64,000 bases of DNA, taken from assembly GCF_003334405.1 (NCBI RefSeq), contig NZ_QOWM01000003.1. One strand, written 5' to 3'. The notes beneath the pieces are model-generated. The model worked only from the letters and a program-made list of their open reading frames with translations, was not told where the DNA came from and did not search any database. Position 1 is the stretch's first letter. Each line of letters starts with the position of its first letter. This stretch comes from Escherichia coli (lineage in GTDB: Bacteria > Pseudomonadota > Gammaproteobacteria > Enterobacterales > Enterobacteriaceae). A program made the position numbers and the translations under genes. Below are positions 2,195 through 45,142 of the stretch, piece after piece.

Positions 2195-3670
2195 ATGGCG
2201 GTAACGCAAACAGCCCAGGCCTGTGACCTGGTCATTTTCGGCGCGAAAGGCGACCTTGCGCGTCGTAAATTGCTGCCTTCCCTGTATCAACTGGAAAAAG
2301 CCGGTCAGCTCAACCCGGACACCCGGATTATCGGCGTAGGGCGTGCTGACTGGGATAAAGCGGCATATACCAAAGTTGTCCGCGAGGCGCTCGAAACTTT
2401 CATGAAAGAAACCATTGATGAAGGTTTATGGGACACCCTGAGTGCACGTCTGGATTTTTGTAATCTCGATGTCAATGACACTGCTGCATTCAGCCGTCTC
2501 GGCGCGATGCTGGATCAAAAAAATCGTATCACCATTAACTACTTTGCCATGCCGCCCAGCACTTTTGGCGCAATTTGCAAAGGGCTTGGCGAGGCAAAAC
2601 TGAATGCTAAACCGGCACGCGTAGTCATGGAGAAACCGCTGGGGACGTCGCTGGCGACCTCGCAGGAAATCAATGATCAGGTTGGCGAATACTTCGAGGA
2701 GTGCCAGGTTTACCGTATCGACCACTATCTTGGTAAAGAAACGGTGCTGAACCTGTTGGCGCTGCGTTTTGCTAACTCCCTGTTTGTGAATAACTGGGAC
2801 AATCGCACCATTGATCATGTTGAGATTACCGTGGCAGAAGAAGTGGGGATCGAAGGGCGCTGGGGCTATTTTGATAAAGCCGGTCAGATGCGCGACATGA
2901 TCCAGAACCACCTGCTGCAAATTCTTTGCATGATTGCGATGTCTCCGCCGTCTGACCTGAGCGCAGACAGCATCCGCGATGAAAAAGTGAAAGTACTGAA
3001 GTCTCTGCGCCGCATCGACCGCTCCAACGTACGCGAAAAAACCGTACGCGGGCAATATACTGCGGGCTTCGCCCAGGGCAAAAAAGTGCCGGGATATCTG
3101 GAAGAAGAGGGCGCGAACAAGAGCAGCAATACAGAAACTTTCGTGGCGATCCGCGTCGACATTGATAACTGGCGCTGGGCCGGTGTGCCATTCTACCTGC
3201 GTACTGGTAAACGTCTGCCGACCAAATGTTCTGAAGTCGTGGTCTATTTCAAAACACCTGAACTGAATCTGTTTAAAGAATCGTGGCAGGATCTGCCGCA
3301 GAATAAACTGACTATCCGTCTGCAACCTGATGAAGGCGTGGATATCCAGGTACTGAATAAAGTTCCTGGCCTTGACCACAAACATAACCTGCAAATCACC
3401 AAGCTGGATCTGAGCTATTCAGAAACCTTTAATCAGACGCATCTGGCGGATGCCTATGAACGTTTGCTGCTGGAAACCATGCGTGGTATTCAGGCACTGT
3501 TTGTACGTCGCGACGAAGTGGAAGAAGCCTGGAAATGGGTAGACTCCATTACTGAGGCGTGGGCGATGGACAATGATGCGCCGAAACCGTATCAGGCCGG
3601 AACCTGGGGACCCGTTGCCTCGGTGGCGATGATTACCCGTGATGGTCGTTCCTGGAATGAGTTTGAGTAA
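2195..3670 (+). CDS. zwf: Glucose-6-phosphate 1-dehydrogenase
   Basis: Track ORF 491 aa, [33 protein letters not shown]..., with the RIDHYLGKE motif characteristic of G6PD. Confidence 0.97.
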
Positions 3671-3693
3671 TATCTGCGCTTATCCTTTATGGT

Positions 3694-3712
3694 TATTTTA
3701 CCGGTAACATGA
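3694..3712. promoter_or_regulatory. GntR-type operator-like palindrome upstream of edd
   Basis: ttttaccggtaacatg contains the perfect palindrome ttaccggtaa; edd-eda is a known GntR target. Its position upstream of the zwf terminator hairpin makes the assignment tentative. Confidence 0.4.
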
Positions 3713-3748
3713 TCTTGCGCAGATTGTAGAACAATTTTTACACTTTCA

Positions 3749-3784
3749 GGCCTCGTGCGGATTCACCCACGAGGCTTTTTTTAT
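3749..3784 (+). terminator. Rho-independent terminator after zwf
   Basis: GC hairpin cctcgtg...cacgagg followed by a T-run (cttttttt). Confidence 0.6.
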
Positions 3785-3904
3785 TACACTGACTGAAACG
3801 TTTTTGCCCTATGAGCTCCGGTTACAGGCGTTTCAGTCATAAATCCTCTGAATGAAACGCGTTGTGAATCATCCTGCTCTGACAACTCAATTTCAGGAGC
3901 CTTT

Positions 3905-5716
3905 ATGAATCCACAATTGTTACGCGTAACAAATCGAATCATTGAACGTTCGCGCGAGACTCGCTCTGCTTATCTCGCCCGGATAGAACAAGCGAAAACT
4001 TCGACCGTTCATCGTTCGCAGTTGGCATGCGGTAACCTGGCACACGGTTTCGCTGCCTGCCAGCCAGAAGACAAAGCCTCTTTGAAAAGCATGTTGCGTA
4101 ACAATATCGCCATCATCACCTCCTATAACGACATGCTCTCCGCGCACCAGCCTTATGAACACTATCCAGAAATCATTCGTAAAGCCCTGCATGAAGCGAA
4201 TGCGGTTGGTCAGGTTGCGGGCGGTGTTCCGGCGATGTGTGATGGTGTCACCCAGGGGCAGGATGGAATGGAATTGTCGCTGCTAAGCCGCGAAGTGATA
4301 GCGATGTCTGCGGCGGTGGGGCTGTCCCATAACATGTTTGATGGTGCTCTGTTCCTCGGTGTGTGCGACAAGATTGTCCCGGGTCTGACGATGGCAGCCC
4401 TGTCGTTTGGTCATTTGCCTGCGGTGTTTGTGCCGTCTGGACCGATGGCAAGCGGTTTGCCAAATAAAGAAAAAGTGCGTATTCGCCAGCTTTATGCCGA
4501 AGGTAAAGTGGACCGCATGGCCTTACTGGAGTCAGAAGCCGCGTCTTACCATGCGCCGGGAACATGTACTTTCTACGGTACTGCCAACACCAACCAGATG
4601 GTGGTGGAGTTTATGGGGATGCAGTTGCCAGGCTCTTCTTTTGTTCATCCGGATTCTCCGCTGCGCGATGCTTTGACCGCCGCAGCTGCGCGTCAGGTTA
4701 CACGCATGACCGGTAATGGTAATGAATGGATGCCGATCGGTAAGATGATCGATGAGAAAGTGGTGGTGAACGGTATCGTTGCACTGCTGGCGACCGGTGG
4801 TTCCACTAACCACACCATGCACCTGGTGGCGATGGCGCGCGCGGCCGGTATTCAGATTAACTGGGATGACTTCTCTGACCTTTCTGATGTTGTACCGCTG
4901 ATGGCACGTCTCTACCCGAACGGTCCGGCCGATATTAACCACTTCCAGGCGGCAGGTGGCGTACCGGTTCTGGTGCGTGAACTGCTCAAAGCAGGCCTGC
5001 TGCATGAAGATGTCAATACGGTGGCAGGTTTTGGTCTGTCTCGTTATACCCTTGAACCATGGCTGAATAATGGTGAACTGGACTGGCGGGAAGGGGCGGA
5101 AAAATCACTCGACAGCAATGTGATCGCTTCCTTCGAACAACCTTTCTCTCATCATGGTGGGACAAAAGTGTTAAGCGGTAACCTGGGCCGTGCGGTTATG
5201 AAAACCTCTGCCGTGCCGGTTGAGAACCAGGTGATTGAAGCGCCAGCGGTTGTTTTTGAAAGCCAGCATGACGTTATGCCGGCCTTTGAAGCGGGTTTGC
5301 TGGACCGCGATTGTGTCGTTGTTGTCCGTCATCAGGGGCCAAAAGCGAACGGAATGCCAGAATTACATAAACTCATGCCGCCACTTGGTGTATTATTGGA
5401 CCGGTGTTTCAAAATTGCGTTAGTTACCGATGGACGACTCTCCGGCGCTTCAGGTAAAGTGCCGTCAGCTATCCACGTAACACCAGAAGCCTACGATGGC
5501 GGGCTGCTGGCAAAAGTGCGCGACGGGGACATCATTCGTGTGAATGGACAGACAGGCGAACTGACGCTGCTGGTAGACGAAGCGGAACTGGCTGCTCGCG
5601 AACCGCACATTCCTGACCTGAGCGCGTCACGCGTGGGAACAGGACGTGAATTATTCAGCGCCTTGCGTGAAAAACTGTCCGGTGCCGAACAGGGCGCAAC
5701 CTGTATCACTTTTTAA
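3905..5716 (+). CDS. edd: Phosphogluconate dehydratase (Entner-Doudoroff)
   Basis: Track ORF 603 aa, ILVD/EDD dehydratase family; followed 36 nt later by eda. Confidence 0.96.
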
Positions 5717-43957: not shown

Positions 43958-44076
43958 CACACTAATCCGTATCGATTTCGTTATAGAAGCCGATGATCAT
44001 TTGATTGTGAGAAAAAGGACGCTTTTTATATGTGATTAAAAGCGTCCTGACCCATTTATGCTGATATAAATTTAAC

Positions 44077-44376
44077 TCAGACCAGTGCTTTTAGTTCTTC
44101 CTGCATATATGTTGAAAAGTATTCAGGATTTTTAATCACAGAACGTTCACCTGTCTCCATTTTTTTTGCCCATCCAACCATTTTTTCCGTGAACCCAGGG
44201 TTCCAGCCTTCCTGGTCAGCTCGCGCCGTAATATCAGCGGCACTCGCGGGTACTCCCAGTTCTTTTAAATATTTAAAGATTCCCTTCGCCGTGCTTTCAT
44301 TCATCGAACTTGGTGTTGGCGCTGATACATCCATGGCACCAATGAAATCCAGGGCTTTATCTATTACAGCAGGCAT
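44077..44376 (-). CDS. yoaC: DUF1889 protein YoaC
   Basis: Track ORF 44077-44436 (119 aa); annotated start probably the internal MPAVIDKALDF... (99 aa). Confidence 0.8.
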   Translation of the reverse strand: MPAVIDKALDFIGAMDVSAPTPSSMNESTAKGIFKYLKELGVPASAADITARADQEGWNPGFTEKMVGWAKKMETGERSVIKNPEYFSTYMQEELKALV

Positions 44377-44797
44377 ATTCTTATCCTTAAAATTAACCAT
44401 GTTATCGATAAGGCTATATATGACCTTAATTTGCATCTAATATCAAAGGGATTATAACGATATGGCACGAGTTAACCTGTTGACATTCAGGTGTTTTAAA
44501 GGTAGCAGCTCATGGTGTGTTATCCAGTAAGATGGAGAAATTTAACGGTCAGTCCGCACGCTATAACCAGATTGTTCAGCTAAGAAAGAAAACCAGAGTT
44601 GCTAATCAAAGGGCGAACACAACGGCATGTTTATGTTTATTTATATAGTTAGTTTTATAGATAAAATTGAAATTATAAATATAAATAATGAATTAGCAGA
44701 AGCATCAACAGTAATATCTTATTCTCTGGTCGATTTATGTAAAACCGACCAGTATTATCGATAAATTATCGTCTGACTTATTTTGCTTCGATAAAGC

Positions 44798-45142
44798 TTA
44801 CACCGCAGCCACAATCTTAATTTCAACTTTATACTTCGGGTTCATCAAACCCGCTTGTACCGTGCAGCGCACCGGCGCATGACCCGCGACAACCCAGGCA
44901 TCCCACGCTTTATTCATCGCCGCGAAGTCGTTTTTATCGGCCAGGAAAATGGTGGCATCCAGAATGCTCGATTTATTGCTGCCCTGTTTTTCCAGCACGG
45001 CGTCAATCTGTGCCAGCGTGTTGGCGGTTTGCTCAAAGGCATCGGCGTCGAGGTTTTCCGGTACACCAGTGTAGTAGAGCGTGTTGTTGTGGATTACTAC
45101 ATCAGACCAGCGGGCTTCAGCATCGATACGAACGATAGTCAT
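44798..45142 (-). CDS. yoaB: RidA/YjgF-family protein YoaB
   Basis: Track ORF 44798-45190 trimmed to MTIVRIDAEARWSDVVIHNN... (114 aa). Confidence 0.88.
   Translation of the reverse strand: MTIVRIDAEARWSDVVIHNNTLYYTGVPENLDADAFEQTANTLAQIDAVLEKQGSNKSSILDATIFLADKNDFAAMNKAWDAWVVAGHAPVRCTVQAGLMNPKYKVEIKIVAAV

Follow-up and report, generated by a model that had tools for sequence, protein, structure and literature searches.

The 421-bp AT-rich gap between yoaC and yoaB in Escherichia coli is probably a composite of ordinary parts set in a foreign islet: the 3' UTR of yoaB with a zone of Rho-dependent termination, a region bound by the regulator YhaJ, filler, and the predicted promoter and 5' UTR of yoaC. 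The main value of this reading is in tidying: an unannotated 421-bp gap of the best-studied genome is explained, and a place is found for three "orphan" signals from the literature, namely an RNA 3' end from Term-seq, a site of Rho action and a core peak of YhaJ ChIP. The region also offers a compact example of a one-gene foreign insert between convergent core genes that supplies a new transcript end and recruits host regulators.

The window, by which we mean the whole 64-kb stretch of DNA analysed, is oriented as the reverse complement of MG1655 at about 1.894 Mb (E. coli K-12). An earlier note, made from the letters of the DNA, had described an AT-rich gap of 421 bp without a called ORF. This description is accurate: the coordinates are exact, the GC content is 32.5%, and nothing is annotated in the spacer, either by PGAP or in the curated NC_000913.3. 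The spacer lies upstream of yoaC, as had been said; it also lies downstream of yoaB, a side that had gone unmentioned. Its GC content of 0.325 compares with 0.502 for the window, is lower still in 44600-44799 (0.28), and falls within the lowest 0.2% of all 421-bp windows in the 64 kb. Just two other stretches in the 64 kb are equally low (30108-30933 and 32862-33557). The string that the earlier note quoted as an example of the composition corresponds to 44637-44692. The spacer is single-copy and is present at 96-100% identity in 5412 of 5426 complete E. coli genomes. Conservation of its length and sequence, which the earlier note had named as part of what would refute its reading, holds within E. 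coli (96-100% identity in 5357 genomes) and fails across the genus, where the length ranges from 261 to 470 bp and the centre is 51-67% identical.

Table 1. Positions of the spacer, its neighbours and the features discussed in the text (numbering of the window)
Feature	Position	Strand	Remarks
Spacer	44377-44797 (421 bp)		Between yoaC and yoaB; MG1655 1893712-1894132
yoaC	44077-44376	-	Flanks the spacer
yoaB	44798-45142	-	Flanks the spacer
Low-GC islet	43958-44797 (840 bp)		Spacer, yoaC, terminator and gene remnant; separates the stop codons of the convergent genes yoaB and yoaH
Bidirectional terminator hairpin AGGACGCTTTT...AAAAGCGTCCT	44011-44052	both	Between yoaC and yoaH
yoaC 5' UTR, predicted, ~68 nt	44377-44443	-	SD AAGGA 44384-44388; second TTATCGATAA palindrome 44402-44411
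Perfect -10 TATAAT of the predicted proximal yoaC promoter	44451-44456	-	Predicted TSS ~44443-44445
Genus-conserved block CTGCTACCTTTAAAACACCTGAATGTCAACAGGTTAAC	44457-44512	-	Upstream of the -10; poor -35; candidate activator site (YeiE?)
Rho-dependent termination region	44490 (MG1655 1894019 +)	-	Resolution of hundreds of nt
Central AT-rich segment	44513-44720 (208 bp)		51-67% identity to other Escherichia, 24-47 gapped columns
Motif TTATAGATAAAATTGA assigned to the yoaC peak by the ChIP authors	44655-44670	+	Within the string quoted in the earlier note
Hypothetical distal promoter TTTACA-16-TAAGAT (9/12)	44716-44743	-	-35 44743-44738, -10 44721-44716, TSS ~44709
YhaJ ChIP-seq peak centres	44718-44758		K-12: 44738, 44740, 44742, 44758; UPEC CFT073: 44718, 44736
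RNA 3' end	44722 (MG1655 1893787 +)	-	4 nt past the hairpin; coordinate matched to sequence
RNA hairpin in the yoaB 3' UTR	44726-44752	-	11-bp stem, 5-nt loop: CUGGUCGGUUU-UACAU-AAAUCGACCAG
Conserved island TTATCGATAAATT	44755-44767		TTATCGATAA palindrome overlapping the exact H-NS high-affinity consensus TCGATAAATT (44758-44767)
TTAT(C/A)GATAA / TCGATAA boxes	44402-44411, 44655-44664, 44755-44764, 44788-44794		Strongly over-represented in the spacer

A one-gene islet between convergent core genes

The spacer belongs to an islet with a GC content of 0.371, against 0.502 for the window. The distribution of the islet was followed in a synteny set of 80 YoaB-centred loci from 80 GTDB species, in each of which the neighbouring genes were located; E. 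fergusonii was fetched separately. yoaC sits at the yoaB/yoaH junction in five of the 80 loci, all of them Escherichia, and in E. fergusonii; yoaC and the spacer are carried by E. coli, E. albertii, E. whittamii, E. fergusonii and three further Escherichia lineages. In every non-Escherichia locus examined the junction is empty or holds other cargo. The yoaB and yoaH stop codons are 0-7 bp apart in all ten of the non-Escherichia genera inspected directly, and most of the remaining non-Escherichia loci have the two genes separated by no more than tens of bp; the genera with a short junction include Citrobacter, Salmonella arizonae, Enterobacter, Klebsiella, Raoultella, Leclercia, Lelliottia, Kosakonia and Yokenella. 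Homologues of YoaC (DUF1889, 68-76% identity) occur in Kluyvera, Buttiauxella, C. amalonaticus, K. oxytoca, Raoultella and others, at unrelated loci. The DUF1889 gene follows a SIP-family gene in Kluyvera and in C. amalonaticus, where mug, rpoD and dnaG come next, and it adjoins fis in Buttiauxella. Similarity outside Escherichia is confined to ~50 nt upstream of the yoaC start codon (80% over 50 nt in C. amalonaticus, 89% over 27 nt in Buttiauxella).

A mobile-element origin was considered and rejected: there is no phage match, and the "plasmid" matches are mislabelled chromosomes or DUF1889 genes. Horizontal acquisition is well supported by the Escherichia-only synteny, the low GC content and the homologues of YoaC at unrelated loci. 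The view that this is leftover horizontally acquired DNA, one of two offered in the earlier note, is thus borne out by an islet of 37% GC that is restricted to Escherichia and occupies a junction whose stop codons abut in the ten other genera inspected directly. There is strong support for regarding the spacer as the non-coding left arm of a small, foreign, Escherichia-specific islet of one gene. The synteny shows that a low-GC yoaC segment of ~0.84 kb was inserted in the Escherichia ancestor between the abutting yoaB and yoaH stops. The islet resembles other single-gene ORFan islets between convergent core genes in its precise insertion between two stop codons, in a DUF1889 cargo that is found at different loci across genera, and in a junction that takes other cargo elsewhere. 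It differs from them in that no integrase, repeats or mobile-element signature was seen at it.

The cargo found at the junction in other genera is unrelated and of host-like GC (loci L025, L045, L083, L037, L028 and L064); examples are a 3.2-kb ABC transporter cluster, an ORF of 350-363 aa, and >4 kb of DNA in Kluyvera and Raoultella planticola. Within Escherichia, the yoaA-yoaH locus is a hot spot for small insertions. E. fergusonii (L085) has a DUF4177 gene and a second ORF of 70 aa between yoaA and yoaB (1811-2232), and ORFs of 257 and 40 aa without a family match between yoaC and yoaH (3546-4445). A 150-aa pentapeptide-repeat gene is intact in Escherichia sp. E1V33 (L005, 5175-5627, minus strand) and in E. 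whittamii (L006), on the same strand and after yoaH; about 30 bp of it (cTAATCCGTATCGATTTCGTTATAG) are left in K-12 at 43962-43990. Its ATG is mutated in K-12, which indicates that the islet was once larger. In E. coli D72, a pig isolate, the start of yoaC and most of the spacer have given way to a copy of IS1A (L002, 3020-3946), and what remains of the spacer is the last 80 bp adjoining yoaB. In Escherichia sp. MOD1-EC7003 (L004), yoaC and the terminator are 96% identical to K-12 and the spacer is of the short type seen in E. fergusonii, with an identity of 79% proximally and 44% centrally; such a mosaic suggests recombination within the islet. The bidirectional terminator between yoaC and yoaH arrived with the islet and now also terminates the core gene yoaH. 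Term-seq 3' ends at its hairpin lie at 44011 for yoaC and at 44052, where the signal is very strong, for yoaH.

Constraint, the yoaB transcript end and the predicted yoaC promoter

Constraint along the spacer was mapped by aligning K-12 with five other Escherichia species and scoring segments against the third codon positions of yoaC, which are 66-72% identical. By this benchmark the proximal 136 bp (44377-44512), at 88-90% identity across Escherichia species, are constrained, and the gapped central segment, at 51-67%, is not. The ~200 bp of the centre drift at or below the neutral rate, apparently as filler and as a zone of Rho loading and termination; ~150 bp of them are deleted in MOD1-EC7003 and E. 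fergusonii. The distal 77 bp are 58-64% identical overall, with two conserved islands, the hairpin and the TCGATAAATT box. Among eight diverse E. coli strains, variable columns make up 2.9% of the proximal, 11.1% of the central and 6.5% of the distal part. Judged by these alignments, about one third of the spacer is constrained; after the insertion, selection would have retained three short parts only, the stem-loop, the TCGATAAATT box region and the proximal 136 bp.

The earlier note had also raised the possibility of an uncharacterised transcript in the spacer, which is partly right. The RNA that crosses the spacer is the 3' UTR and read-through of yoaB, with an end at 44722 and a Rho site at ~44490, and not the product of an independent gene. 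The yoaB 3' UTR contains a hairpin that folds at -15.5 kcal/mol (z = -3.5 in its 101-nt context). It is kept in seven Escherichia lineages with two compensatory pairs (G-C to A-U and C-G to U-A), and 92% of its cells are paired, against 8-44% in slid controls, with the covariation drawn from seven sequences. In each of its three growth conditions, Term-seq has placed an "orphan" RNA 3' end just beyond this hairpin, at MG1655 1893787 (+) (Adams 2021, PMC7815308, suppl. file 1). A scan of the spacer for intrinsic terminators gave no terminator-like site, and the stem is followed by AGAAUAAGAUAUU, which has no U-run. DirectRNA-seq with and without bicyclomycin gives a Rho score of 3.15 (p 2.4e-6) at MG1655 1894019 (+), from low read counts (92/41 vs 67/94) and at coarse resolution (Adams 2021, PMC7815308, suppl. 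file 2). The yoaB-sense strand has more C than G across the spacer (74 vs 63).

The missing U-tract and the bicyclomycin-sensitive site ~230 nt further on suggest that yoaB transcription would run into the untranslated AT-rich tract, where Rho would stop it. Trimming would then shorten the RNA as far as the hairpin, so that the stem-loop would mark the stable 3' end of yoaB RNA and yoaC would be insulated from yoaB. As the yoaB transcript would thus end within the spacer, the inserted DNA had to provide a new end for yoaB. In the general model, Rho-dependent transcripts end at a protective stem-loop following 3' trimming. The spacer resembles terminators of this kind in that a stable RNA 3' end is found 4 nt past a stem that lacks a U-tract, and in that a bicyclomycin-sensitive region, with read-through when Rho is inhibited, lies downstream in untranslated RNA with more C than G. 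It differs in that here we infer the exonuclease trimming, and in that the Rho signal is modest.

At the other end of the spacer, the proximal 136 bp would hold the predicted promoter and 5' UTR of yoaC. Of the six Escherichia genomes in the alignment, five have the TATAAT intact, as does E. fergusonii; the sixth, E. whittamii, has GATAAT. A perfect -10 with a poor -35 points to a promoter that is activator-dependent. The start of yoaC itself has been annotated in more than one way. An upstream in-frame ATG at 44436 gives a yoaC of 119 aa and the ATG at 44397 one of 107 aa (MVNFKDKN-MPAV...), and both forms are found in some public records (P0003). E. albertii and Kluyvera have lost 1 nt and with it the upstream frame, and in the cryptic clades the ATG at 44436 is replaced by ACG, which argues that the 99-aa start is the true one.

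Regulator binding and H-NS-type boxes

The documented occupants of the spacer are two LysR-type regulators, YhaJ and YeiE, neither of which the earlier note foresaw. ChIP-seq targets of YhaJ include yoaC in K-12 (in two media), EHEC, UPEC and NMEC (Connolly 2019, 2020), and yoaC is called a known YhaJ-regulated gene by the ChIP authors (Connolly). We took the peak centres from SI Tables S3 and S4 of Connolly 2019 and from the Connolly 2020 dataset and mapped them for K-12 (1893751-1893771) and CFT073. The peaks overlie the hairpin and the box beside it; from there it is ~300 bp downstream to the predicted yoaC promoter. The motif TTATAGATAAAATTGA, the one named by the ChIP authors for this peak, lies 65-85 bp from the peak centres. 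Under a PWM derived from 18 further YhaJ sites in the literature, it reaches 7.8 bits, which is the best score in the spacer; the mean maximum of AT-matched shuffles is 8.7, and strong sites score 12-16. It is absent in MOD1-EC7003 and E. fergusonii and is not conserved outside E. coli. A 15-nt repeat has its copies 100 bp apart (AGTtTTATaGATAAA and AGTaTTATcGATAAA, at 44651-44665 and 44751-44765), one at the motif and one under the peak.

YeiE is reported from ChIP-exo to bind yoaC DNA on the upstream side of the RNAP site and to activate the gene (Gao 2018). For YhaJ, a comparison can be made with its core targets yqjF, ybiJ, yhaK and yhhW (Palevsky 2016; Connolly 2019, 2020), with which yoaC shares a peak that is reproducible in four strains. 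The yoaC peak differs from theirs in that it overlies the 3' end of the preceding gene and is ~300 bp away from the likely promoter, in a spacer without a strong TCA-N7-TGA / T-N11-A site, and in an assigned motif that is 65-85 bp off centre and missing in other Escherichia. LysR-type activators usually sit at -65/-35. Binding of YhaJ in vivo is documented here, at a position other than -65/-35 of the predicted proximal TSS.

The box under the YhaJ peak is also of interest with respect to H-NS. TCGATAAATT matches exactly the high-affinity H-NS motif tCGATAAATT (Lang 2007, PMC2094087), and is the sole exact match in the 64 kb. It is exact in two other species (L007 and L009) and has one mismatch in L005 and L006. 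The 10-bp palindrome TTATCGATAA that it overlaps has just two copies in the window, which lie 353 bp apart within the spacer (44402-44411, in the 5' UTR, and 44755-44764), so that perfect copies flank the predicted yoaC promoter; a copy with one mismatch, TTATAGATAA, lies at 44655-44664. Five of the 23 matches to TCGATAA in the window fall within the spacer, which makes up 0.66% of it. Candidate binders of these boxes are H-NS, YhaJ or YeiE. B2 strains have TTGTCGATAA at the distal box. Neither yoaB nor yoaC is in the tables of Higashi 2016, and we found nothing relevant on TTATCGATAA or b1810 in the published literature.

H-NS silencing of the yoaC promoter region, the other view offered in the earlier note, is plausible from the composition and the motifs. 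The DNA is AT-rich and lineage-restricted and contains a high-affinity motif, and a promoter in foreign, AT-rich DNA that is flanked by sites of the nucleation type gives a layout that resembles H-NS silencing. With H-NS-silenced xenogeneic regions such as proU and bgl (PMC2094087) the islet shares lineage-specific low-GC DNA, an exact tCGATAAATT, and weaker boxes scattered in the AT tract to either side of the promoter (44402, 44655, 44755, 44788). It differs from them in being tiny (0.84 kb, one gene) and in that its link to H-NS is a prediction from sequence. H-NS would nucleate at the TTATCGATAA/TCGATAAATT box and at the related boxes at 44655 and 44402, and would damp yoaC; YhaJ on the box region and YeiE nearer the promoter would counteract H-NS.

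Other readings of the spacer

Among the points that tell against the composite model are the distance of ~300 bp between the YhaJ peak and the predicted promoter, the missing strong YhaJ motif, the coarse Rho signal with its low read counts and the small number of sequences behind the covariation. At such a distance YhaJ could act by counter-silencing, or by activating a weak distal promoter. The latter would be a second yoaC promoter under the YhaJ peak, activated by YhaJ and followed by an AT-rich leader of ~330 nt with Rho attenuation near 44490, a reading that we consider unlikely. It draws on one of just two promoter-like sites that a consensus scan gave in the region; the K-12 YhaJ centres (44738-44758) fall at -29 to -49 of the putative TSS, the position expected for a LysR-type regulator, the Rho-dependent site is downstream on the same strand, and the ChIP paper describes yoaC as a known YhaJ-regulated gene. 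The site is, however, a 9/12 match, and the two weak sites of the scan do not exceed the shuffles, which give more. Its -10 is not conserved in other Escherichia (TAAGCG or TAAGAG), the proposed leader is unconstrained, and the read-through RNA may equally originate from yoaB. It is likewise doubtful that YhaJ atop the putative H-NS nucleation site is a counter-silencer and/or drives the distal promoter with its Rho-attenuated 330-nt leader. If this were true, yoaC, a foreign gene required for tolerance of boric acid, would be inducible by quinone or aromatic stress and would be joined to a core regulon by three layers, H-NS, a LysR regulator and Rho. An interplay of H-NS and YhaJ, if true, would make a small, tractable model of counter-silencing and a possible handle on the function of YoaC.

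It is improbable that the spacer, the yoaC promoter aside, has no function and is what remains of a decayed gene, or neutral junk brought in with the islet, on which the ChIP and RNA-end signals are incidental. Such a view accords with the drift of the centre at or below the neutral benchmark and its deletion in two lineages, with the visible loss of the pentapeptide-repeat gene from the other arm of the islet, and with the replacement of most of the spacer by IS1 in D72. It does not accord with a hairpin that has compensatory changes and a mapped RNA end, with the conservation of the TCGATAAATT block amid diverging context, or with YhaJ binding that is reproducible in four strains; nor does any reading frame or protein similarity remain of a decayed gene. 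A pseudogene remnant was sought with six-frame fragments against the non-Escherichia loci, and nothing fell below E = 0.06; blastn against the same loci matched the ~50 nt of the yoaC 5' UTR alone. The most improbable of the readings is that the spacer encodes an sRNA or small protein of its own, such as the plus-strand ORF 44532-44648 (38 aa, MEKFNGQ...) behind a TTGACA at 44480-44485. That TTGACA is invariant in the genus, and ORFs of 38-45 aa are present. The accompanying -10 is poor (TAGCAG), and the ORFs in the spacer, of at most 45 aa, are not conserved. We rejected the small plus-strand ORFs, which have no protein similarity, because in other Escherichia their frame is lost through an 11-nt indel and the peptides encoded there are unrelated. 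A search of the spacer region against Rfam at a permissive E-value gave chance matches only, to eukaryotic snoRNAs and, on the yoaC terminator, to a Streptococcus sRNA, and no Term-seq 3' end is listed on the plus strand (MG1655 minus) of the spacer (Adams 2021, PMC7815308). The spacer has no gene of its own; an sRNA, a small protein and a pseudogene were each looked for and not found.

In a screen of the Keio collection with boric acid, the yoaC deletion was the most sensitive mutant (PMC11502571). Structures of YoaC (DUF1889) have been solved (2ES9, 2JN8).
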